DNA of 64,000 nt from assembly GCA_965228735.1 (NCBI GenBank), contig OZ245838.1, positions 6,720,001 to 6,784,000 on the forward strand, given 5' to 3'. Origin of the DNA: Planctomycetota bacterium (lineage in GTDB: Bacteria > Planctomycetota > UBA1135 > UBA2386). How positions within the stretch are numbered: the first letter of the stretch is position 1; the number at the start of each line of letters is the position of its first letter. The translations under genes were made by a program, and so were the position numbers. Positions 42,091-56,491 of this stretch are shown here, in pieces. The notes beneath the pieces were generated by a model that searched no databases, was not told where the DNA came from, and saw only the letters and a list, made by a program, of their open reading frames with translations.

Positions 42091-43863
42091 ATGGCCCACA
42101 ACCGATTCGCCGCGTCCGCGGCCGCCGCTCTCATCGGCCTTTCCGCACTGCCGGCGCTCGCCGCGCAGTGCACGATCCACGATCTCAACTCCGGCGCAGC
42201 GGGCACCTGGCCGCAGTTCATCGTGCCCGCGTTCGGTCAGCAGCTCTACATCAACGCCAACATCGGCGGTGCCGGATCCGAACTCTACCGCTGGAATCGG
42301 GCGACCGGCTTTCAGCTGCTCGACATCAACCCGGGCTCCAACAACAGCAATCCGCAGTCGCTCGCCGCGGCGTGCACGCCGGTCGGGCCGCGGGTGTTCC
42401 TGAGCGCGCGCGGTGCGACCGGGGGGCAGGAACTGTGGATGACGGACGGCTCGCCGGCCGGCACGGTGCGCGTGCGTGACATCCTCCCGGGCAACAGCAG
42501 CTCCAACCCGACGCACATGTTCGCGGGTCTGGATCGCGTGTTCTTCCAGGCCAACGACGGCACCAACGGGCGGGAGCTGTGGTCGTCGGATGGCACGACG
42601 GCCGGCACCCAGATGATCCTCGACATCAACCCGGGTTCGGGCAGCTCGCAGCCCGACTTCCTCGCGCTGCTCGGCGGGCGCCCGGTGTTCACCGCGTGGA
42701 CGCCGACCCTCGGCCGCGAACTCTACATCACCGACGGCACCGCCGCGGGCACGATCCTGCTCGCCGACATCCGGCCGGGTTCGAGCTCGTCGTCGATCTT
42801 CGAGGCCGTGGTCCTCGGCGATCGCGCCTACTTCGCGACCGACGATGGCGTCAACGGCTCCGAGCTGTGGGCGACCGACGGCACGCCGGCCGGGACCGCG
42901 ATGCTCGTCAACCTCGCGCAGAACGCGGGCAGCAGCAGCCCGCTCGAGCTCACGAAGAACGGCGACGAGCTGTTCTTCGTCGCGACCGACGGCTTCACGG
43001 GCCAGGAGCTCTACAAGACGGACGGCACGCCCGCCGGCACGGTGCTGGTGAAGGACGTTCGTCCCGGCGCGCTGTCGTCGCAGCCGCGCGACCTGATCGC
43101 GTCGAACGGGCTGGTGTTCTTCTCCGCCGATTCGGTCGGTGGGGCGGGCCGCGAGTTGTGGGTCAGCGACGGCACGAGCGCCGGCACGGTCGAGATCGAC
43201 ATCAACCCGGCGGGCAACTCGTTCCCGCAGTCGTTCGTGGCGGTCGGCACCGGGGTCTGTTTCGCCGCGACCGACGCGATGGGGAGCGAGCCGTGGTTCT
43301 CGGACGGGACGGTGGCGAACACGTTCCGCGTGTGTGACATCGACCCGGGGGCCGGCAGCAGCACGCCGCAGAACCTCATCGTCGCCGCCGGGCGCGTCTT
43401 CTTCCAGGCGTCCGATCCGGCGCTCGGCAACGAGGTGCACGAGATCACGACGCCCGGCGCGCTCGCAGAACGGCGCGGTCACGGCGCGTTGCCGAGTCAT
43501 CCGGAGCTCGTGAGTCGCGGCGGTCGTGCGCCCGTCCTCGGCACCACGGTCGACCTCGATTCGACCGGGCCGGCGACCGGGCTCGGGGTCCTCACCGTGG
43601 GGTTCGGCAAGCTGCCGCTGCCGGGCACGCCGGGTTTGACCGTCGGGGCGTGTGACTGGACCGGTGTCACGAACAACACGGCCGTGGTCGCGGTCCTCGG
43701 GTTCGGGCCGACGTTCTCCTACGCGTTCGCGATCCCGAACGTGCCGGGCTACACCGGGCTCGATCTCGCGTTCCAGACGGTGTGGCTCGTGTCGGGGCAG
43801 ACCCCGGCCGTCGAACCGTCGAACGGACTGCAGCTCGTCCTCGGTGGACCCGTGCCGATGTGA
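42091..43863 (+). CDS. Secreted ELWxxDGT-repeat protein plus shared C-terminal domain
   Basis: Signal ending LAA-Q; repeats ELWMTDGS, ELWSSDGT, ELYITDGT, ELWATDGT, ELYKTDGT, ELWVSDGT with DIxPG. Confidence 0.9.
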   Translation: MAHNRFAASAAAALIGLSALPALAAQCTIHDLNSGAAGTWPQFIVPAFGQQLYINANIGGAGSELYRWNRATGFQLLDINPGSNNSNPQSLAAACTPVGPRVFLSARGATGGQELWMTDGSPAGTVRVRDILPGNSSSNPTHMFAGLDRVFFQANDGTNGRELWSSDGTTAGTQMILDINPGSGSSQPDFLALLGGRPVFTAWTPTLGRELYITDGTAAGTILLADIRPGSSSSSIFEAVVLGDRAYFATDDGVNGSELWATDGTPAGTAMLVNLAQNAGSSSPLELTKNGDELFFVATDGFTGQELYKTDGTPAGTVLVKDVRPGALSSQPRDLIASNGLVFFSADSVGGAGRELWVSDGTSAGTVEIDINPAGNSFPQSFVAVGTGVCFAATDAMGSEPWFSDGTVANTFRVCDIDPGAGSSTPQNLIVAAGRVFFQASDPALGNEVHEITTPGALAERRGHGALPSHPELVSRGGRAPVLGTTVDLDSTGPATGLGVLTVGFGKLPLPGTPGLTVGACDWTGVTNNTAVVAVLGFGPTFSYAFAIPNVPGYTGLDLAFQTVWLVSGQTPAVEPSNGLQLVLGGPVPM

Positions 43864-45603: not shown

Positions 45604-45855
45604 GCCGGGTCGTTCGGGTCGCCCGGGCCGCCCAGACGCGCATTCCCGGCCGGCCGCTGCCGCGGTATACTTGGTATCATAAAGTAGATTTCCTGAGCGC
45701 CGTGTGCCCGTTTCATCGTTGCTACGGGCGATTCCGGCGGTCCACTTCCAGACCCGGCATCGAGCCCGGCGCGACTTGCCACAAGCGACAAGTCGACCCG
45801 TGGTATCGGTCGAAGAGTACAGCCGCGGCGGCGTTCCAGCTGCCGTTCCCACAGC

Positions 45856-46620
45856 ATGTTCCGTCGTCAGAAAGCCGAAGAGCGCGCCCCCGGCACCGAA
45901 GGTGATCTCGTCGTCGTCGTCGACGAGGCGGTCAACCCGTTCCTCGTGATGTTCCACGAGCCGGCGAGCTTCCGCGCCGAGCAGGTCCGCTCGCTGCGCA
46001 ATCGTCTCGTCGCGATGAACCCCGATGGCGAGCCGAAGACGCTCGTCGTGACATCCGCGGTGCGCAGCGAGGGCAAGTCGATCGGCGCGCTCAACCTGGC
46101 GATGGCGTTCTCCGAGCTCGAGTGGCAGAAGGTCGTCATCGTCGACGCCGACCTGCGGCGCCCGAGCTGTGAGAGCTACCTCAACCTCAACCGCGGGAAG
46201 GGCTTCTCCGACGTGCTGCTCGGCGACGCGACGCTCGATGAAGCGCTGCGACCGGCCGGCTTCCGGCACCTGCAGCTGCTCGGCGCCGGCACGCCCGTGA
46301 GCAACCCGGCCGAGGTGCTCGGAATCGGGCGCATCGACGGCCTGTTCCAGCGGCTGAAAGAACGCTTCCAATACATCGTGATCGACACGCCGCCCGTGCT
46401 GCCGTCGACCGACGCCGGCGTGCTGTCATCGCGCGCCGACGGCACGCTCGTCGTCGTGCAGCTCGAGCAGTCCCTCAAGGGCCAGACCAAGGACGCGATC
46501 CGGCTGCTGCAGGATCAGGGCGGCAACGTGCTCGGCACGTTCGTGAACGGCCTGCGCGGCCAGGACCCGGAGAGCGACAAGCGCCTGGCCTACGAGCCGC
46601 GCGAGATCGACGAGGACTGA
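45856..46620 (+). CDS. Soluble CpsD/CapB-type (BY-kinase-like) P-loop protein
   Basis: EQVRSLR, TSAVRSEGKS, DADLRRP, NPAEVL, IDTPPVL; no TM and no C-terminal Tyr cluster. Confidence 0.88.
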   Translation: MFRRQKAEERAPGTEGDLVVVVDEAVNPFLVMFHEPASFRAEQVRSLRNRLVAMNPDGEPKTLVVTSAVRSEGKSIGALNLAMAFSELEWQKVVIVDADLRRPSCESYLNLNRGKGFSDVLLGDATLDEALRPAGFRHLQLLGAGTPVSNPAEVLGIGRIDGLFQRLKERFQYIVIDTPPVLPSTDAGVLSSRADGTLVVVQLEQSLKGQTKDAIRLLQDQGGNVLGTFVNGLRGQDPESDKRLAYEPREIDED

Positions 46621-46622
46621 TC

Positions 46623-47414
46623 GTGAAGCGCTTCAAGGAATCGCTGAAGGACGCCGTGCGCCAGATGGCGTATCGGACGTCCGTGGACAGCCTCAAGAAG
46701 CGCGGCGTCCAGCAGGTCAACGTGCTCGGCATGGACCGCATCGTCTCGCTCGTCGAGGCGGCGGTGCACAAGAGCCTCAAGAGCAGGCTCGTCGGCATGG
46801 AGCGCGAGGCGGTCGCGGATGCGACCAAGGCCGAGTTCGTGCGCCTGATGCGCAACAACGAGGATCTGCAGCGCGAGAAGAGCGAGATCGAGCAGCAGAA
46901 GGAGCGCGCGCAGGAAGAGGTCGACATCATGCGGCGCGAGATCGCGCAGCAGGAGCAGGCCCTCAAGACCCGGCTCGACGAGGGCGCGCTCGAGGTCGCG
47001 AGCCGCTACGAGGGCGAGAATGCCGTGATCGCGCAGAAGGTGGCGGACGTGATGCGTTCGCTCCAGAGCCAGGGCGGCCTCGCGGGGGCCGAGACCAAGG
47101 TCATCGAGCTCGTGATGGACATCGTCCAGGACGAGCGCAAGGAGGCCGAGGAGGCCCGGGCGGCGCTCCGCGACCGCGAGGTCGAGAACCTGCGGCGCCG
47201 GATCACCAAACTCAACGACTCGCTCGCGCAGACCGAACATCGGTTGCAGTCGGTGTCCGCGATGAAGAACATCGACGACGGCATCTCTTCGATCTACCGG
47301 GAGGTCCAGGGGCTCGACGCCTCGGACCAGCAGGCCGGCAAGAAGAAGGAGCTCATGTCCGAGATCTTCCGCGCCAACCTGGAGTTGCAGCAGAAGGTCA
47401 AGAGCCGGCAGTAG
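46623..47414 (+). CDS. Coiled-coil cytoplasmic protein
   Basis: E/K/Q/R-rich heptad pattern; starts 2 nt after the upstream stop. Confidence 0.8.
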   Translation: MKRFKESLKDAVRQMAYRTSVDSLKKRGVQQVNVLGMDRIVSLVEAAVHKSLKSRLVGMEREAVADATKAEFVRLMRNNEDLQREKSEIEQQKERAQEEVDIMRREIAQQEQALKTRLDEGALEVASRYEGENAVIAQKVADVMRSLQSQGGLAGAETKVIELVMDIVQDERKEAEEARAALRDREVENLRRRITKLNDSLAQTEHRLQSVSAMKNIDDGISSIYREVQGLDASDQQAGKKKELMSEIFRANLELQQKVKSRQ

Positions 47415-47479
47415 GCCGCGGGCAGACGCACACGCAGTACAGGCAGCAGCAAGACAGCAGGAACGCAGTAGGGAACAAG

Positions 47480-48559
47480 ATGACGGAATCGCCCAAGAGC
47501 CCGGAGACCGATTCTCCGGAGAAGGACCATGGCGTCCTCTACATCGGGATGGACCTCGGCACGTCGCGCACTTCGGTGTCGGCGAGCAACGGCGTGCGCG
47601 AGACGGTGCACTCCGTGGTCGGCTACCCGAAGGACGTGGTCAGCAAGAAGCTGCTGAAGCGCGACGTGCTGTTCGGCGCCGAGGCGATGGAGAAGCGCCT
47701 GTCGCTCAAGATGTACAAGCCGCTCGAGAAGGGCGTTCTCAAGTACACGGGCGACGCGGAGAAGGACGCCGAGGCCAAGGCCAACCTCAAGGCCGCCGAG
47801 GATCTGATCGGGGAAGCGATCCGGCTCGCGAAGCCGCGCCAGGACGAGCTCGTCTACTGCGTGATCGGCTGCCCGGCCGAGGCCTCGATGAAGAACCGCG
47901 AGGCGATCATCGAGGCCGCGCGGTCGCACGTCGATTCGGTCATGCTCTGCAGCGAGCCGTTCGCCGTCGCCTACGGCCTCGACTGGCTCGAGGACGTGCT
48001 GGTCATCGACATCGGCGCGGGCACGACCGACCTCTGCCGCATGCACGGCACGATGCCGGAGGACGCCGACCAGGTCACGTTCGACGTTGCCGGCGACGCG
48101 GTCGACCAGGCGCTCGACGCCGAGATCGAGAAGAACTGCCCCGGCGCCCAGCGCACCGTGCAGATGGTCAAGGAGATCAAGGAGCGTTGGGGCTTCGTCG
48201 GGGACGCATCGGAGCGCGCGATGGTCTCCCTGCCCGTCAACGGCAAGCCGACCGAGTTCGACCTCACGGACTCGATCCAGACCGCCTGCAAGATCCTCGT
48301 CGACCCGATCGTCGGCGGCATCCACGAGCTGGTCAGCTCGTTCGACCCCGAGTTCCAGAACAAGCTGAAGAACCGCGTCCTCCTCGCGGGCGGCGGCTCA
48401 CTCCTCAAGGGCCTCGACTCGGCGATCGAACGCGCCCTGCAGGAACGCCTCGGCGGCGGCAAGGTCATCCGCATCGAAGAACCGATCTACGGCGGCGCCA
48501 ACGGCGCGCTGAAGATCGCGCATGACATGCCGGCTGACTACTGGGAACAACTCAAGTAG
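47480..48559 (+). CDS. MamK-like bacterial actin
   Basis: IGMDLGTS, SVVGYPKDVV, SEPFAVAYGLD, IDIGAGTTDLC, EDADQVT..AG, IKE, AGGGS, GALKIAHDMPADYWEQL; recalled MamK motifs (SVVGYPKD, DIGAGTTD, EDQVTL, YW.QL) match. Confidence 0.88.
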   Translation: MTESPKSPETDSPEKDHGVLYIGMDLGTSRTSVSASNGVRETVHSVVGYPKDVVSKKLLKRDVLFGAEAMEKRLSLKMYKPLEKGVLKYTGDAEKDAEAKANLKAAEDLIGEAIRLAKPRQDELVYCVIGCPAEASMKNREAIIEAARSHVDSVMLCSEPFAVAYGLDWLEDVLVIDIGAGTTDLCRMHGTMPEDADQVTFDVAGDAVDQALDAEIEKNCPGAQRTVQMVKEIKERWGFVGDASERAMVSLPVNGKPTEFDLTDSIQTACKILVDPIVGGIHELVSSFDPEFQNKLKNRVLLAGGGSLLKGLDSAIERALQERLGGGKVIRIEEPIYGGANGALKIAHDMPADYWEQLK

Positions 48560-48825: not shown

Positions 48826-49545
48826 TCAGACTCCGAAGTGGGTTTGGAGGATGTCGCGGAGTTGGAAGAAGTCGGTGACTTCGTGGTTGGCCTTGGTTTG
48901 GCCTTCTTCCGTGCTGTAGCGGCCGCCGCGGCGGACTCGGACCGTGTGCCAGCCTTCGTTGTTGCAGGGGTCGATGTCGTGGGTGGGGTTGTCGCCGACG
49001 TAGAGGCAGCGGGCGGGCTCGAGCTTCATGTGTTCGAGCACGCGGCGGTAGAGCTTGGGGTTGGGCTTGCTGAAGCCGACCTGGTCCGTGAAGAAGATCG
49101 CGGAGGGGGTGAGGAACTCGAGGACCCCGAGGCGGACGACCTTCTCGGCCTGCTTGATCGTGATGCCGGCGGAGACGACACCGCGGACGAGCGGCTTGTC
49201 GGCGAGCCAGCGCAGGACCTCGTAGACGTCGTCCCAGACCTTGAGCTTGCTCCACTTGGTGTCGTGGTAGGCGCAGACGCCCGCGGCGACGATGACCGCG
49301 CGATTGTTGCCGTCCCAGGTCTCGTGGCCGAGGCGGTCGAGCACCTTGTCGAAGTGGCTGCCGTAGTTGCTCGAGAACTCGGCGATGACCTCCTGCAGCT
49401 CGCGCAGCGCCGCGTCGCGCTCGCAGCGCAGGCCCGCGCGTAGCATCGCGTCGATCGCGGCGCGACGGGCCTGATCGGCGAAGACCGACGTCGAGAACAG
49501 CGTGTCGTCGACGTCGAAGAAGATCGCGTCCAGGGCGGTGCTCAT
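48826..49545 (-). CDS. HAD-superfamily hydrolase, subfamily IA
   Basis: FFDVDDTL, SKPNP, YVGDNPTHD. Confidence 0.92.
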   Translation of the reverse strand: MSTALDAIFFDVDDTLFSTSVFADQARRAAIDAMLRAGLRCERDAALRELQEVIAEFSSNYGSHFDKVLDRLGHETWDGNNRAVIVAAGVCAYHDTKWSKLKVWDDVYEVLRWLADKPLVRGVVSAGITIKQAEKVVRLGVLEFLTPSAIFFTDQVGFSKPNPKLYRRVLEHMKLEPARCLYVGDNPTHDIDPCNNEGWHTVRVRRGGRYSTEEGQTKANHEVTDFFQLRDILQTHFGV

Positions 49546-49621
49546 GGGCGTGCTCAGCTCCTTCGCGTGTCCGGTCCGGCGCTGGCGCGCGGGAAACACG
49601 CCGCGGGGGTCCTGCCTACGC

Positions 49622-49655
49622 AAAAGGCCGCGCCGATCGTAACCGGCGCGGCCTT
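49622..49655 (-). terminator. Intrinsic terminator after the secretin-like gene
   Basis: Stem AAGGCCGCGCCG/CGGCGCGGCCTT ending in TTTT on the minus strand. Confidence 0.75.
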
Positions 49656-49698
49656 CGGGGGGAACGGCTGGGCCGTTCCAATGGGGGGGCTTGTGGTG

Positions 49699-52287
49699 TT
49701 ACCGCCCGACGCTGTTCACGACGTCCGTGATCTGCGCACGCACCATGACCATCAGGCTCTTGTTCTCGTCCACCGAGCCCTCCTGCTTGAACAGGAACGA
49801 GATCAGCGGCAGGCGCGCGAGCAGCGGGACCTCGGCGCGACGCTCCTTGGTCAGCACCTGGCGCAGACCGCCGAGCAGCACCGTGCCGCCGTCCGGCACC
49901 TTGGCAGTGGTCGAGAAGTTCGTGACCACGAGGTTCGGCAGCTGCAGCGTGACCGGCAGCGTCGAACCCGCGAGCGACGTGGTGAACGTCGGGATCGGGC
50001 GGGTCAGTTCGGCGACCGTCGGGTTGAGGTTGAGGATGATGTACTTCCGGTCCTGCTGGATGACCGGCTGCACGTCGAGCACGATGCCGTCCTGGATCAC
50101 GTCGACCTTCGGGTCGGCGATGAACGCCGCCTGCGCGACCTCGACGTCGAAGTCGCGGACGTAGGCCGTCTGGTTGATCACGGCGACATGGCCGCGCTCG
50201 CGGTTGAGCACCGAGAGGATCTGGCTGTTGACCATCTCGACGTCCTGCTGCTTCTCGACGGCGCGCAGGATCACGTTGAGCTGCAGGTCGTCGAGCAGCG
50301 TCCAGCCGGCCGTCAGACCGCCGGTCGGCGACAGCGCGCGGCTCAGGTCGTTGGCGAAGTAGTTCTCCGTGCGGCCGCGGATGTCACCGTCGCCGCCGTC
50401 GTTGAAGAACGCACCCGCGAGCGGGTTGGCCGCCGGATCGCCCGTGCCGCCGTTGTCGAGGCCGCGCGACGCGTTCGACTGCAGGCCGTTGGTCACGTCG
50501 TCGAGCGGCACGACCGTGCCCTTGTTGCCCGAGCCGCCGAGGCCGCGGATGTCGATGCCGACCTCGCTCAGGAAGTTACGCGAGATCGTCAGGAACTTGC
50601 TGTCGATCGTGACGATCGGCGTCGCGAAGCGGCGCATGTCGTTGAGCACCGTCTCGACCTGGGCCTGCATCTCCGGCGTCGCGGTGACCGCGAGGAAGCC
50701 CGAGTCCTCGGCGCGGATCTCGACGCCGTCACCGTCCCAGTAGATCGGGTCGGTCGCCTCGCGAACGTTGGTCACGAGGTCGGCGATCTCGATGTAGGAG
50801 ACCGGGTCCTCGCCCTCGCCACCCGTGCGCGGCACGTCGTCGAAGCCGTCCTCACCCGGGATGTCGCGGATCTTCGGCGGCAGGAACTGCGTGCGCTGGA
50901 AGACCAGGTCGCTGACCGGGTAGATCTCGGTCGTCAGCGTGCCGGCGGCCTGCGACTTGTCGCCGATCAGGATGACGCCGTTCTTGACCGTCCACGCCAG
51001 GTTCTCCGTGCGGTCGGTCATGTGGTTGAGGAAGTCGCGCAGCGTGACCGAGCCGACGAGCTCGATCGCGAGCACCATCGACTCGGTGTCGATGATGTCG
51101 CGCGCTTCCGGCGTCACGATGATCTGCAGCTGCGTGCGCAGGCTCAGATTGCGGATCACGTCGAGGTAGGCGCCCGTGTCCTCCGTGTAGGTCAGCTTGC
51201 CGACCTGCATCGTGTTGACCTGGTCCCAGACCGCCTGGTCCATCGGGTCCATGACGGCCGTCGTCGAACGGCGCGCCTTGCGGCCGTTGGCCCGCGCCCA
51301 GACCGCGAGGTCCATCTCGAGCACCGCCGTCTGCGGCACCTTGAGCTCCTCGTCCGCCTCCAGCATGCGGCGGATCGCCCGCGCGCGCTGCAGGTAGTAC
51401 TGCTGGTTGCTGTCCTCACGCGCGGCCTTGACCGCGGCGTTGTGCATCTCGGACGCGATCACGCTCGACGGATCGACGTCCTTCGCGCGCGTCGCGAGTT
51501 CTTGCGCGTAGGCGAAGCGCTGGTTCTCGAACGCCTTCTGCGCTTCGAGGATCAGCGCATCGTGCTGATCGCGGCGGCGCTTCTCGGCGGCCTCGTTCTC
51601 GGCGCGCAGACGCTCGGCGAGGCGGGCGCTCTCGGCCTCCTGGCTCGCCTTGACCTGCTCGTCGTAGAGCCCCTGCATCTCGTCCGTCTTGGCCGTGACG
51701 CGCTGCGGCAGATCCTGCCAGTCGACGAGGTCCTTGAGCTCGATGACCTGCGCCGCGATGCGCAGCTCCTCGAGCGCGCCGGCGTAGTCCATCGTGGCCG
51801 CGAGCTCGTCGGCCTTCTGCAGCTGCATCTCGACGTTGGTGCGCGCGCGGTCTTCGCCGATCTGGCGCAGACGCGTCTGCTCCTCGGCGAAGCTCACGAC
51901 CGTGCCGACCGGCTCACCGAGCTCGGCCTGCACGCTGATCAGCAGCTCGGCGATCTCGGTGTTGCCGGGCGCCATGCTCACCGCCTTCTGCAGCTCGCGC
52001 TTGGCCGCTTCGAGCTGGCCGCGCGTGCGCAGGGATTGCGCGTTGCTGACGTATCGCTCGACGAGCACCGCGCGGCGCTGCGCGTCGACGCCCTGCGGGT
52101 CCTGCGCCGCGCCACCGGCATTGCCGCTGTTGGCCATGCCGGGGTTGCCGCCCGTGTCGCCGCCAGGGTTGTTGGCCGCGGGGGTCGGGTCCGCCGGCTG
52201 CGGGTCGGCCGGCGACATGGAGCAGGAAGCGCCGAGCAGTGCGGCGATCAAAGAGACAGCGAGAAGGCGCGATTGTTCGAGGGCCAT
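49699..52287 (-). CDS. Secretin-like outer-membrane lipoprotein with TPR/coiled-coil N-terminus (paralog A)
   Basis: Lipobox LLGAS-C; N3-like LAVTATPEMQAQVETVL; C-domain DGIVLDVQPVI, VPDGGTVLLGG, VPLLARLPLISFLF. Confidence 0.85.
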   Translation of the reverse strand: MALEQSRLLAVSLIAALLGASCSMSPADPQPADPTPAANNPGGDTGGNPGMANSGNAGGAAQDPQGVDAQRRAVLVERYVSNAQSLRTRGQLEAAKRELQKAVSMAPGNTEIAELLISVQAELGEPVGTVVSFAEEQTRLRQIGEDRARTNVEMQLQKADELAATMDYAGALEELRIAAQVIELKDLVDWQDLPQRVTAKTDEMQGLYDEQVKASQEAESARLAERLRAENEAAEKRRRDQHDALILEAQKAFENQRFAYAQELATRAKDVDPSSVIASEMHNAAVKAAREDSNQQYYLQRARAIRRMLEADEELKVPQTAVLEMDLAVWARANGRKARRSTTAVMDPMDQAVWDQVNTMQVGKLTYTEDTGAYLDVIRNLSLRTQLQIIVTPEARDIIDTESMVLAIELVGSVTLRDFLNHMTDRTENLAWTVKNGVILIGDKSQAAGTLTTEIYPVSDLVFQRTQFLPPKIRDIPGEDGFDDVPRTGGEGEDPVSYIEIADLVTNVREATDPIYWDGDGVEIRAEDSGFLAVTATPEMQAQVETVLNDMRRFATPIVTIDSKFLTISRNFLSEVGIDIRGLGGSGNKGTVVPLDDVTNGLQSNASRGLDNGGTGDPAANPLAGAFFNDGGDGDIRGRTENYFANDLSRALSPTGGLTAGWTLLDDLQLNVILRAVEKQQDVEMVNSQILSVLNRERGHVAVINQTAYVRDFDVEVAQAAFIADPKVDVIQDGIVLDVQPVIQQDRKYIILNLNPTVAELTRPIPTFTTSLAGSTLPVTLQLPNLVVTNFSTTAKVPDGGTVLLGGLRQVLTKERRAEVPLLARLPLISFLFKQEGSVDENKSLMVMVRAQITDVVNSVGR

Positions 52288-52678
52288 CGGGTCACTCGGT
52301 GCGTGCAGAAGGGCTGAAGGAGCTGCGTCGTTGCAGCTCCCGTGCCCACGTGTCGAGAGGGGCTGAGTGCCGGCACGTGGACGGGACGAAACGACCGCTA
52401 GCTGGGGGCAGGCGGCCGGGAGGGACCGGAAACCTATCTACGGCCAGGGACCGGTGCCAGCGCTTTTTCAAGGTTGGAAGTCGTTGGCAAGGCCGGCGCT
52501 GGGGCCGATTTGCGGGGCGGCGCGGTTGCCCCGGGGCAGCGTTGCGCCGGAGCCCATGCGGCCCGGGTCGCGACGGGCGGCCCGGGTTCGCCGAGGTGTC
52601 GCCGGAGGGGGCTCTGGCGGGCCATGCGGCGCTCTCGGCCAGGGCCGCGCGAGCGCGGGCCCGGTCCTTTCGGCCCGC

Positions 52679-54244
52679 TCAGCGGCCCGTCAGCTCGTCG
52701 AGGATCGCGCGCGAGCGGGGGTGGGCCTCGCAGACTGTTCGGTCGCGTCGGTCGCGCGCGTGTGGGTCGGCGCCCGCGGCCAGCAGCACGCGGACGACGG
52801 GCCGCGGATCGACGCTGCGCCCGCACTGGAACGCGTGGAACAACGGCGACGCTCCCGTCTTCTCGTCGGGTCGGTCGACGTCGGCGCCGGCGTCGAGCAG
52901 CGCGGCGACCGTCGCCGCGAACCCGGCCTTCGCCGCGAAGTGCAGCGCGGCGCGGCGCCAGTACGGGTGCACGCGGTCGGGGTCGGCGCCGCAGTCCAGC
53001 AGCGCGCGCACGTACTCGGCGTCGTCCTTCTGCGCGTGGTTGCCGGTGCAGCTCTGCCACTGCCAGCTGCTCCACGGGTCGGATTCGTAGTTCACGTCCG
53101 CGCCGTGCTCCAGCAGCAGCGGCGCGAGATCGCCGTCGAGCACCCAGCGGCCGCAGCCGACGCGGGTCGCGTCGGCGCCGCGATCGAGGAGTTGCCGCAG
53201 CAGCTCGGGGTCGGGGGCCTCGGCCGCGTGCCGCACGAGTTCGTGGCTGCGTTCGCCGACCGTGGCGCCGCGGTCGAGCAGAAGCGTTGCGGTCATCGGC
53301 TGGTCGTGCAGGACGGCATGGTAGAGCGGCGTCAGTCCGAGGATGTCGTCAGCCGGGTCGGGCGTCTCGAGCAGTTCGGGGTGGGCGTCGAGCCAGCGCG
53401 ACACGCCGATCCGATCGCCGAGGGTCGCGGCCGTGAAGATGTCGTCGCGCGCGCCGAGCTCGAACAGCAGCTCGGCCGCCGCGGTCTTGCGCTGCCGCAG
53501 CGCGCCGCACAGCGGGGTCGCGAGCGGGCCGCTCCAGTCGATCGAGGTCGCGGCCGCCGGATCGGCACCCGCTTCGACGAGAACGGCGATCACCTCGACC
53601 CGACCGCGCGTCGCCGCGAGGTAGAGCAGGCTCGGGCTGCCCCACGCAGGTTCCAGCAGTTGCGGTCGTTCGGCGAGTGCAGTGCGGATCGCGGCGACGT
53701 CGCCCTTCTTCGCGGCCTTGACCGCCGCGTCGTGGACCGGGTCCTTGCCGCAGCGATGGCGGTCGGGGTCGGGCGGGCCCGTCGGGTCCTCGTCGTTGAC
53801 GAACGCGGTCGCGAGCGGCCGCAGGGTCGCGTGGATCTCGTCGCGCAGATCATTCGATACGCCGGCCATTCGCAGCGCGCGTTCGAAGTGGCCGAGCCAG
53901 CGCTGCGCGTCGCGCGGCGCGATCCGCGCGTGGCGGTGGCGCAGCCGCAGCCCGGCGCGCGCGCGGTGGCGCGAGTAGAGCGGTTCGCCGCCGAACCACT
54001 CCTCGAAGAACATCACCTGGTTCTGCCGTTCGAGCGCCTGGTCGCGCCGGAACATCGGGCGCAGCACCGGGTCGTCGTGGATGCCGTCGTAGAGGCCCTG
54101 CACGATCCGAGCCACGGTCTCGCGGCCGCCGAGCCGGTCGAACAGCGCCGGGTCGGGGCGGAGCCGGTCGACCTGCAGGTGCAGGCCGCCGCGGTGGGCG
54201 AGGGTGGGGTGGGGGGCGTCACCCGCGGGGTGGGGTGGCATCAT
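52679..54244 (-). CDS. Truncated haemoglobin (group II-like 2/2 globin) fused to ankyrin repeats
   Basis: LFDRLGG..LYDGI..DPVLRPMF..FGGEPLY..LRLRH..RWL; then ankyrin repeats LVEAGADP, TPLYHAV, ALHFAAKAG, LLDAGADVD. GAGG SD before ATG 54244. Confidence 0.85.
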   Translation of the reverse strand: MMPPHPAGDAPHPTLAHRGGLHLQVDRLRPDPALFDRLGGRETVARIVQGLYDGIHDDPVLRPMFRRDQALERQNQVMFFEEWFGGEPLYSRHRARAGLRLRHRHARIAPRDAQRWLGHFERALRMAGVSNDLRDEIHATLRPLATAFVNDEDPTGPPDPDRHRCGKDPVHDAAVKAAKKGDVAAIRTALAERPQLLEPAWGSPSLLYLAATRGRVEVIAVLVEAGADPAAATSIDWSGPLATPLCGALRQRKTAAAELLFELGARDDIFTAATLGDRIGVSRWLDAHPELLETPDPADDILGLTPLYHAVLHDQPMTATLLLDRGATVGERSHELVRHAAEAPDPELLRQLLDRGADATRVGCGRWVLDGDLAPLLLEHGADVNYESDPWSSWQWQSCTGNHAQKDDAEYVRALLDCGADPDRVHPYWRRAALHFAAKAGFAATVAALLDAGADVDRPDEKTGASPLFHAFQCGRSVDPRPVVRVLLAAGADPHARDRRDRTVCEAHPRSRAILDELTGR

Positions 54245-54251
54245 GGCCACC

Positions 54252-55240
54252 TCACGAGGGGCCGATCACCGCGGTCGCGGCATCGGACAGGGCGGCGCCC
54301 AGCGCGTTGCCGGCCTGTGGATCGAGCACGAGCGCCTGCAGGTGCAGGGTCCAGCCGACGAGGGTGGGCGTCGGCGGAATCGTGACGGCGATGTCGGCGT
54401 GTCCCGCCGTGCCCTGAACGAACAGCATCACCTCCGGCGCGACCCGAAGCGTGCAACCGGGCAGGCCGAATGCACTGAGCTCGAGCGGGAGCGGCCCGAG
54501 GCCCGAGGACGTCGCGTCGGTGCCGAGCGCGACGATTGCCGCCGCGAGGGGCAGGTTGTCGATGCGAACGACGGCCGTCGCGCCGAGGCGCGGCGGCGCG
54601 CTGGCGGTGAGCGTCGCGCGCGGCAGGCTGCCGGCGCACCCGGCGCCCAACGTCTCGAACGACCCCGGACCGAGGATCGCCGCGCCCTCAGGATGTGGAA
54701 CCCATTGGCCGCGACGGAGATCGCCGTGTACTGCACGCCGGCGGGCAACGTCGGCACGGGGGTCAGCCACGTCAGGTTGCCCCACAGCGTGATGCTCCCG
54801 TCACTGCGGAGGCCGGCGGAGAAGCCGGACCCGGCGGCGACTCCGGTGTAGGTCAGGCCGGGCGGCAGGGCCGGGACGTCGCACTGGTGCGAGTGGTTGT
54901 ACCCCCACGCGAGCGCGACGCCGTCGCTGCGGATCGCGAGCGTGTGCCGGTAGCCCGCGGCCACGGTCGTGTAGGTCTGACCGGGCGGCAGCGGCGGCAC
55001 GAGGCATTGGCCCTCGCGGTTTCGGCCCCAGGCCACGAGCGTGCCATCGGGTCGCAGGGCGGCGGTGTGGAACCCGCCGGCCGCGATCGCCGTGAAGCTC
55101 TCGTCGAGCCACGCGTCGTTCGTGACGGTCTCGCCCCACGTGGCGAGGGTCTGGGCGGCGAGCCCGGATGCGAGGCCAGTTGCGAGGCCGGCTGCGAGGC
55201 ACGGCGCAAGAACTGCGGCTGCGGGGGCCCGCATCAGCAT
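54252..55240 (-). pseudogene. Frameshifted secreted RCC1-repeat protein with shared C-terminal domain
   Basis: Signal plus RCC1 repeats (AAGGFHTAALRPDGTLVAWG, AAGYRHTLAIRSDG) in one frame to ~54690; C-terminal domain continues in another frame to 54252. Confidence 0.75.
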
Positions 55241-55393
55241 CCGCCAACCCGGGCGGCGCAGCGGTGAGTGACATCCCATGTCGGGACATCGTAGCCGATC
55301 GTGGTCACTCCGTACACGACTCGGCCCGCCGGGTCCTCGGGGACGCGGCGGGCCGGGTTGGTGCGGCCCCATCGGTCGGGGCGACTCGGGTCG

Positions 55394-55948
55394 CTACTTC
55401 TTGGCGCCGAGGCCGCCGCCGAAGTTGATCTCTTCGAACTCGGCCTCGTTGGCGGCGTCCGCCGTGCGGGCGACGCTCTCGTAGAACACGCCGGGGTGCG
55501 GCTCGATGACGACCGGCATGAGCTTGCGCGTGCCGGGGTTCTTCGGGTCCGGGACGCGGCTCGCCGGGTCACTCGAGATGCGCTTCAGCTCCTTGGCGAC
55601 GTCCTCGATGTCGTGGAGCGGCTTCGGGCCGACCATCCACTTCACCTTGTAGTTCTCCATGACGAAGCGATACGGGCGGTCGTTGTTGGGGTTGAGGTCG
55701 TTCGGCCCCATGCCGTTCGGATACTTGGGAGAGCCCTGCGATTCGACGTAGATGCCCACGGAGAGCTGCTCCATCGGCTCGACCTGCGTCGACTGGCTGC
55801 CCTTGTCCTTCGGCAGGTAGGCGGGGAGCTTGGCTTCGAGCACTTTGAACTCGATGCAGAGGAAGAAAATGATCATCAGGAAGACGCAGTCGATCATCGG
55901 CGTCATGTCCGCCTTGGCTTCTTCCTGTGCGTCGTCGATGGCACTCAT
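55394..55948 (-). CDS. exbD: ExbD/TolR family protein
   Basis: DMTPMIDCVFLMIIFFL with the conserved TM Asp. Confidence 0.88.
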   Translation of the reverse strand: MSAIDDAQEEAKADMTPMIDCVFLMIIFFLCIEFKVLEAKLPAYLPKDKGSQSTQVEPMEQLSVGIYVESQGSPKYPNGMGPNDLNPNNDRPYRFVMENYKVKWMVGPKPLHDIEDVAKELKRISSDPASRVPDPKNPGTRKLMPVVIEPHPGVFYESVARTADAANEAEFEEINFGGGLGAKK

Positions 55949-56491
55949 CTACTTGCCCTCCAGCAGACTCTTGTTCTTCTCTTTGGTTTCCTTGTCCTCT
56001 TCGGACAGGGCGAGCTCGACCTTCCAGAACGCGATGTGCGGCTGGCTGCACTGCTTCATGATCTCGCCGATGTAGTGCCACTCGGTCCACTTGTCGGCGC
56101 GGATCAGGATCGGGTCGTCGATCAGCTTGACCATCTTGCCGCCGATGTCCTCGTCGACGATCTTGAGCTTGCCGGTCAGTTCGCCCTCGCGGCGGATGTT
56201 CTCGAGCAGGATGCGGATCTTGGTGTAGTCCTTGCCGTCGACGAGCGCGTCGTAGATCACTTCGCCCTCGAAGATCACCGAGCCGTTCTGCAGCACGTTG
56301 ATGATCGGCCGGTTCTCGGGCGGCTGGTCATCGGGCTCCTGGAACTCCGCGCGCGGCAGGATCAGGTCCTCGAGGTTCTTCTGGCTCAGGTCGATGACCA
56401 ACACGAAGAAGATCATCAACAGGAACACGCAATCGATCATGGGCGTCATGTCCATGTCGAGCTGCTCCTGAGCGACTTTTTGCATGTCCAT
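55949..56491 (-). CDS. exbD: ExbD/TolR family protein
   Basis: DMTPMIDCVFLLMIFF, ILIRADK; AAGGAGG SD. Confidence 0.9.
   Translation of the reverse strand: MDMQKVAQEQLDMDMTPMIDCVFLLMIFFVLVIDLSQKNLEDLILPRAEFQEPDDQPPENRPIINVLQNGSVIFEGEVIYDALVDGKDYTKIRILLENIRREGELTGKLKIVDEDIGGKMVKLIDDPILIRADKWTEWHYIGEIMKQCSQPHIAFWKVELALSEEDKETKEKNKSLLEGK

Follow-up and report, generated by a model that had tools for sequence, protein, structure and literature searches.

The closest described relative of the system reported here is saltatorellin, a MamK-like actin named by Wiegand et al. 2019 (10.1101/817700) in Saltatorellus ferox Poly30 and relatives; according to the accessible text of that paper, the Poly30 protein formed filaments when expressed in E. 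coli and M. gryphiswaldense. For the amoeba-like shape changes of the FtsZ-less Saltatorellus group, whose driver is still open, saltatorellin is the one named candidate. Coiled-coil networks around MamK and Mad28 have been reported in deep-branching magnetotactic bacteria (PMC12748827, PMC12713370 and PMC10653835, in their accessible parts), and orphan catalytic domains of bacterial tyrosine kinases (BY-kinases) have been speculated, in the accessible part of PMC9800525, to use the activator of another locus. In this study, we followed up three adjoining genes in a stretch of 64,000 nucleotides from a Planctomycetota bacterium (assembly GCA_965228735.1, contig OZ245838.1), hereafter the window, which encode a BY-kinase-type protein (P0001), a coiled-coil adaptor (P0002) and a MamK-family actin (P0003). 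Actin and adaptor form a two-gene core that is well supported by their distribution and by one predicted complex, and the kinase is best taken as borrowed from polysaccharide export.

As in the genomes in which saltatorellin was named, a MamK-like actin is found here besides MreB in an FtsZ-less, GC-rich planctomycete. The saltatorellin reverse primer, as given in the accessible text of 10.1101/817700, encodes the C-terminus YWEQLK-stop (decoded by hand), which corresponds to the last six residues of P0003, and P0003 is very likely the saltatorellin orthologue, a judgement based on this primer-encoded C-terminus and not on a direct alignment to the Poly30 protein. The same text describes two actins per genome; in the host studied here, a volactin-family actin makes three. 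The words 'coiled', 'operon' and 'kinase' are missing from the main text of 10.1101/817700, and thus no partners of saltatorellin are described there. We found no paper describing its partner genes in title or opening of the abstract, in a search outside which lay the supplements of that paper (Fig. S6, Table S4), its 2020 companion and most subscription papers; in their accessible parts, PMC11032199 merely mentions saltatorellin, and PMC10869688 and PMC1569441 hold nothing on the neighbours of saltatorellin-type actins. The actin is already named; the coiled-coil adaptor is undescribed.

The actin and its coiled-coil partner

Family profiles and a PDB search both place P0003 with MamK. It scores 409.9 bits against the MamK profile NF040964, above the cut-off of 400 (410.5 in a second search), and falls below the cut-offs for BeeR (205.8 against 530) and MreB (68.5 against 293); in a PDB search, MamK chains come first (E 3e-72), followed by BeeR (3e-39) and MreB (4e-12). 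The BeeR and MreB readings of the gene were dropped on these scores, the true mreB (448.8) being located apart from the triplet at 306 kilobases (kb) of the host's single contig (C1), with transpeptidase and RodA genes. Intact in P0003 are the phosphate-1 (D25, G27), phosphate-2 (D177-D184) and adenosine (G304-S307) motifs and E159, which we take to be the actin ATP-binding and hydrolysis sites; across 110 actin sequences, D25, G27, D177, G179, G304 and G305 are invariant and E159 is conserved in at least 90%. P0003 thus likely forms an ATP-dependent filament.

An earlier sequence-only reading of the locus had called the actin MamK-like rather than MreB-like and had placed it outside a magnetosome island, and both assignments held up. 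In the host genome, MamA (57.7 against a cut-off of 200), MamB (105.5 against 350), MamM (118.5 against 350), MamO (73.6 against 800), MamP (30.5 against 300) and MamQ (71.9 against 250) all score far below their cut-offs, MamE and MamI not having been searched, and a magnetosome reading was dropped on the scores of these six genes. The family is widespread: it occurs in 162 of the 201 genomes of the host's class (87 of the 89 good ones) and in 111 of 301 genomes across the phylum (E<=1e-35). In family f9, whose genomes are mostly small, it is present in 5 of 35 genomes and absent in the other 30; many genomes of family f10 hold two copies. The class's actins group as a single clade (FastTree support 0.81) in a tree that largely tracks families and was built without any magnetosome MamK sequence, and a plasmid collection searched for magnetosome MamK gave no match at 1e-20. 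This apparently vertical spread of MamK-family actins beyond magnetosome islands bears on the origin of magnetosome MamK, and makes mamK alone an unsafe marker of magnetotaxis. A BeeR-like actin (386.5 bits against 530) was seen in another planctomycete that also holds a MamK-family pair (genome G390, L190:4970-6070).

The coiled-coil protein is the actin's true partner. P0002 consists of a head (about residues 1-85), long helices (60-148 and 156-215) and a conserved tail (218-262). It matched no Pfam or NCBIfam family, and belongs to a large unnamed family (55 of 61 relatives; 418 representatives at E<=1e-30). A profile that had been trained on genes adjacent to the actin finds the adaptor in 78 of 301 phylum genomes (E<1e-30), all 78 of which also carry the actin (hand count). 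Of 127 loci examined, 120 had an actin and enough upstream DNA, some possibly being one genome counted twice; the adaptor tail lies directly upstream of the actin in 103 of these and the head in 72.

AlphaFold2 models P0002 alone with a small head of helices, followed by two long helices and a tail motif (predicted local distance difference test, pLDDT, 81.7; predicted template modelling score, pTM, 0.52). For the P0002-P0003 complex the prediction score was 0.61, against 0.00 for the best of 3 controls, with at least 57% of contacts shared between runs and a partner pLDDT of at least 64; the pass mark, which applies only roughly because own alignments were used, had been reached by 116 of 157 complexes of solved structure and by 2 of 215 mismatched pairs. 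Full-length P0002 was supplied, and the confident interface comprises residues 218-262 alone, by which the adaptor is predicted to bind actin residues 17-21, 35-39, 118-126, 137-148, 155-171, 190-192 and 346-358. This tail holds the most conserved residues of the family (G220 94%, G230 96%, K241 95%, N252 99%), and Y225, conserved in 79%, lies within the predicted interface. Judged from residue positions rather than by superposition, the contact surface would be the IA/IIA groove that ParR and arcadin-2 use, and the adaptor would then act either on monomers or at one of the two ends of the filament. The partnership proposed in the sequence-only reading is supported by both conservation and the predicted complex. 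A known fold for the adaptor was not established: neither whole P0002 nor its head had a Foldseek match at E<=0.001, the best VIA-align hit (Z 5.9, root-mean-square deviation 3.6, 72 aligned) is level with unrelated helical proteins, and the best ESM Atlas values (0.86 and 0.82) are leads only; these helix-level scores do not thereby make the fold a new one.

The adaptor head recurs in front of a different actin. The third host actin, at C1:738,737, belongs to the volactin family (PF25216, 273 bits against 35) and is preceded by a 321-residue coiled-coil protein with a P0002-type head (the pair spans C1:737,680-739,780, or L235:7681-9781); a one-protein tblastn of the genome overlooked both this actin and the adaptor paralogue, which profiles recovered. 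The volactin family was matched in 63 of 151 phylum genomes, and the head lies directly upstream in 22 of 30 of its loci, the other 8 being cut by the 1.5-kb flank (5), holding tandem actins (2) or giving no actin match (1). The volactin-family partners end in another conserved tail than that of P0002.

Conversely, the head is missing from 32 loci that keep the tail, mostly with a GGDEF-like domain instead, as in many f10 loci and similar named metagenome-assembled genomes (MAGs); P0002 itself has no such domain. The GGDEF Pfam cut-off was passed by 20 of 50 scanned adaptors. The catalytic GG[D/E]EF motif is absent in all 27 locus proteins and all 119 homologues, and RxxD, which we take to be the cyclic di-GMP (c-di-GMP) site, is retained in 18 of the 27 and in all 119. 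By these motifs, the degenerate GGDEF domain of f10 adaptors is likely a c-di-GMP sensor. The adaptor head, which recurs with the volactin-family actin and is replaced in f10, would be an exchangeable input module. Public databases label GGDEF-bearing adaptors (L079:4891-5970, L088, L100, L102 and others of f10 type) as diguanylate cyclases. PilZ-like N-terminal extensions, noticed by eye in five adaptors (L181-L183, L189, L192), had no Pfam support and are not claimed.

The kinase and the distant polysaccharide locus

P0001 is the sole protein of the host genome to pass the BY-kinase profile TIGR01007 (114.8 against 108.05). Its top-scoring family is the XrtA-associated tyrosine autokinase TIGR03018 (142.6, under the cut-off of 230.65), and its best PDB matches are CapA-CapB chimeras. 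By the motif definitions in the accessible part of PMC9800525, it carries EX2RX2R (E42, R45, R48), Walker A (G73, K74, S75, with the first glycine replaced by Ser), Walker A' (D97, D99, R101) and Walker B (D177-P180); the EX2RX2R-type oligomerization motif is invariant in 64 of 64 sequences. The likeness to a CapB/Wzc kinase domain proposed from the sequence was thus sound, as was the reported lack of a C-terminal tyrosine cluster and of a fused or flanking transmembrane activator. No transmembrane stretch was seen on reading the sequence of P0001. Its only tail tyrosine, Y246, is kept in 50 of 69 aligned sequences; one or none is found in 33 of 46 actin-adjacent copies and 2-5 in 6 of 8 kinases from polysaccharide clusters, and a few members of the kinase clade retain 3-5. 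In an IQ-TREE analysis of 83 sequences and 224 columns, with an arbitrary root on two cluster kinases, one clade (ultrafast bootstrap, UFBoot, 99) unites the actin-adjacent kinases with the relocated copies of families f10 and f6 and the second copies of family f68. These f68 second copies (L280-L290), most with a charged C-terminal extension, sit apart from both the actin and profiled polysaccharide genes.

A capsule context had been reported as missing, which is correct for the window and incorrect for the genome. At C1:996-1007 kb (C1:996,000-1,007,000; L220:8068-18921) lies an XrtA/PEP-CTERM-type exopolysaccharide locus with genes for a Wza-like exporter, a co-polymerase, a TIGR03097 ligase, an amidotransferase, an exosortase and a TIGR03006 deacetylase, of which only ligase and deacetylase exceed XrtA-specific cut-offs. 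The co-polymerase, at C1:996,961-998,583, has 541 residues, no kinase domain and, by eye, an extra hydrophobic C-terminal helix, and is the candidate activator of P0001. In all 12 loci examined from the host's own family, the genes for exporter, co-polymerase and ligase directly follow one another, and the nearest outgroup kinases from other families adjoin such a co-polymerase in 8 of 8 fetched cases.

Co-occurrence was followed in 74 genomes, in groups chosen by the analyst. A full-length co-polymerase (E<1e-48) is present in all 23 genomes from outside the class that have a kinase of the actin-adjacent clade, and additionally in G041, which has the kinase and no actin or adaptor match; the same co-polymerase is found in only 1 of 50 actin-bearing genomes that lack the kinase, so that in none of 24 genomes does the kinase occur without it. 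In five f9 genomes, the actin is present and neither the kinase nor a co-polymerase orthologue is found. At these discordant points, G041 and the five f9 genomes, the kinase goes with the co-polymerase. Of 109 f10 genomes, 104 retain a kinase orthologue (E<1e-39; hand count), which lies not beside the actin but close to carboxylase-type and CarboxypepD_reg genes. Its adjacency to the actin nonetheless recurs: within the class, seven families have the kinase in the same orientation as the actin pair, and outside it, in 21 genomes of seven further families, kinase and pair stand head-to-head, the other flanking genes of the triplet differing family by family. The kinase is thus distributed more like polysaccharide export than like the actin, while the adjacency persists across many families, even after inversion. 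That the kinase would be an obligatory third part is not supported by these comparisons, as many lineages have actin and adaptor only, f10 keeps its kinase elsewhere, and the kinase follows a co-polymerase without a kinase domain.

Gene layout, host genome and neighbouring genes

The three co-oriented genes noted in the sequence-only reading were confirmed as three open reading frames on the forward strand (Table 1). The GTG start of the adaptor lies only 2 nucleotides past the stop of the kinase gene. In 30 of 30 fetched loci, the own locus included and taken around relatives of the middle gene, the order kinase-coiled coil-actin is kept, one actin being cut by a contig end; the arrangement is therefore not a product of chance, and the proposed conservation check turned out in its favor. 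Relatives with names are mostly Planctomycetota MAGs. Neither a grouping of the actin with MreB, nor an unconserved triplet, nor, by the six mam genes searched, a full magnetosome gene set was encountered.

Table 1. Genes of the triplet and the gap upstream of them, in window coordinates.
Feature	Position	Strand	Basis and remarks
BY-kinase-type gene P0001, 254 aa (amino acids)	45856..46620	+	Family profiles, motifs; soluble catalytic domain, XrtA-associated tyrosine autokinase type
Adaptor gene P0002, 263 aa	46623..47414	+	GTG start; unnamed family
MamK-family actin gene P0003 (saltatorellin type), 359 aa	47480..48559	+	Family profile, PDB matches, tree
252-nucleotide gap, presumed promoter region of the three genes	45604..45855	.	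3' of urocanase gene

The triplet is flanked by the urocanase gene on one side and a convergent HAD hydrolase gene on the other. No sigma-70-type site was found in the gap at 45604..45855, and a promoter/terminator scan gave no signal beyond shuffles. The host genome is a single contig of 7.19 Mb with 69% GC and 93% completeness, of which the window covers C1:6,720,001-6,784,000. The host is a planctomycete, a case for which the sequence-only reading had allowed, and ftsZ gave no match in this 93% complete genome, while 13 of 14 control genomes did match. On the reverse strand 3' of the triplet (window 48826-56491) lie the HAD hydrolase, a secretin-domain protein and two ExbD/TolR genes; in own-family loci, HAD is near the triplet in 26 and ExbD in 19, a synteny at family level only. 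Because the simple gene caller overlooked some genes (three loci checked), neighbor lists are incomplete. The window further holds a truncated-globin domain fused to ankyrin repeats (52679-54250, reverse strand) and a protein that is likely secreted, with a weak Pfam match only and with ELWxxDGT-like repeats noticed by eye (42091-43863, forward strand).

Proposed mechanism, rival explanations and known systems

We propose that the actin would form an ATP-dependent filament gripped by the C-terminal tail of the adaptor, which through this grip would likely anchor or cap it. The adaptor head would serve as the input module, of the volactin-adaptor type or, in f10, GGDEF-like. The kinase would likely act as the soluble half of a co-polymerase from the distant polysaccharide locus, tying the filament to polysaccharide export; the co-polymerase may activate it at the membrane, and, in the weakest step of the scheme, the kinase may contact or phosphorylate the adaptor, with Y225 as candidate site, by which surface-matrix secretion and filament placement would be coordinated. 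If true, a bacterial actin filament would be linked to slime secretion. The locus offers a partner that is likely to bind the actin through a defined tail, and it points to a residue that may be phosphorylated and to a protein that may activate an 'orphan' BY-kinase.

A kinase that serves the co-polymerase and is coupled to the filament as well is the reading that we favor, at about even odds, given its adjacency to the actin across families and an inversion, and its retention beside the actin in two genomes, G303 and G257. Several observations weigh against this coupling. The f10 kinase is split from the actin pair, 20 relocated loci (19 of f10 plus G041) have no actin, adaptor or profiled polysaccharide genes nearby, and about 50 genomes have the actin and no kinase, so kinase and actin need not be coupled. 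In G303 and G257, the co-polymerase cluster holds a kinase of its own in addition to the actin-adjacent one (2 of 23 co-polymerase loci with an own kinase neighbor, 3 loci being cut short), which fits a separate job for the actin-adjacent copy. Since the genomes are kin, the co-occurrence rests on few independent events, and the co-polymerases of G303 and G041 were part of the profile training alignment. Moreover, 17 of the 120 actin loci have no adaptor tail upstream. A wider reading is more tentative, and we consider it rather doubtful: a modular actin system, with one adaptor family, two unrelated actins, c-di-GMP input in one lineage and a displaced kinase leading to exopolysaccharide export, would be the circuit behind shape-shifting and tissue-like aggregation without FtsZ.

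The triplet might instead combine two unrelated functions, a cytoskeletal module of actin and adaptor and a kinase that serves polysaccharide export only, its position being an inherited accident. The match of kinase and co-polymerase at every discordant point, the f10 kinase that left the actin and was kept in most genomes beside unrelated genes, and the single clade of actin-adjacent kinases, whose adjacency may have arisen only once, all speak for such an accident; yet the adjacency outlasted an inversion and is found in about 14 families while the remaining flanks are family-specific, kinase and adaptor genes are nearly contiguous at the own locus, and G303 and G257 retain the actin-adjacent kinase despite a co-polymerase with its own kinase neighbor. 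We regard this explanation as a real, minority possibility. Somewhat less probable in our view is the autonomous three-part positioning system of the sequence-only reading, in which the kinase-like protein stands outside polysaccharide export as a MinD/ParA-like ATPase or a dedicated filament kinase. It would account for the tight packing of the genes, the eroded tyrosine cluster (at most one tail tyrosine in most actin-adjacent copies) and the two genomes with both a cluster kinase and an actin-adjacent kinase. It sits poorly with a protein that is the sole over-cut-off BY-kinase match in a genome whose co-polymerase has no kinase domain, that occurs without the co-polymerase in none of the 24 genomes compared, and whose BY-kinase oligomerization motif is invariant.

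DNA segregation of ParM/ParR type, in which the head would bind DNA and the tail couple it to the filament in cells without FtsZ, draws on the parallel between the head-stalk-actin-binding-tail layout and ParR-ParM (PMC5173319, accessible part) and on a basic extended segment in the adaptor head; we consider it very unlikely, as the 32 tail-keeping loci dispense with the head, mostly for a GGDEF-like domain. Least probable of all, and nearly negligible, is that the locus belongs to a magnetosome system or is a remnant of one, to which the score of P0003 over the MamK cut-off would point: in a single-contig genome of 93% completeness, the six Mam proteins searched for (MamE and MamI were not among them) stay far below their cut-offs, and the actin is near-universal in good genomes of the class, with a tree that tracks families.

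Returning to the coupled system that we propose, its parts resemble and depart from described ones in different ways. BeeR of Verrucomicrobiota (10.1101/2023.11.07.565980, accessible text) is likewise a MamK-related actin in non-magnetotactic bacteria of the PVC (Planctomycetes-Verrucomicrobia-Chlamydiae) group; P0003 differs by its low BeeR score and by lacking BeeR's N-terminal extension of 30-50 residues, and a BeeR-like protein branches far outside the group of P0003 in the actin tree. MamK itself (PDB 5ljw, 5jyg) shares about 38% identity with P0003 over 340 residues (hand count), and the MamK/Mad network, in the accessible text of PMC12748827, shares the principle of an actin with coiled-coil partners; here, no magnetosome genes were found among those searched, and the adaptor, not aligned directly to MamJ or Mad proteins, has no NCBIfam or Pfam match. 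As with ParR-ParM and arcadin-2-crenactin (PMC5173319, accessible part), the product of a neighboring gene would bind the actin groove by a C-terminal helix, here by prediction only; unlike these, P0002 shows no demonstrated sequence likeness to them, is chromosomal and has an exchangeable head. Split (F-type) or 'orphan' BY-kinases, such as CapA-CapB and TIGR03018 with TIGR03007, share with P0001 the catalytic motifs, EX2RX2R and a separate membrane co-polymerase; P0001 differs from them in that it lies far from its likely activator and beside an actin module, with one tail tyrosine and a score under the TIGR03018 cut-off.

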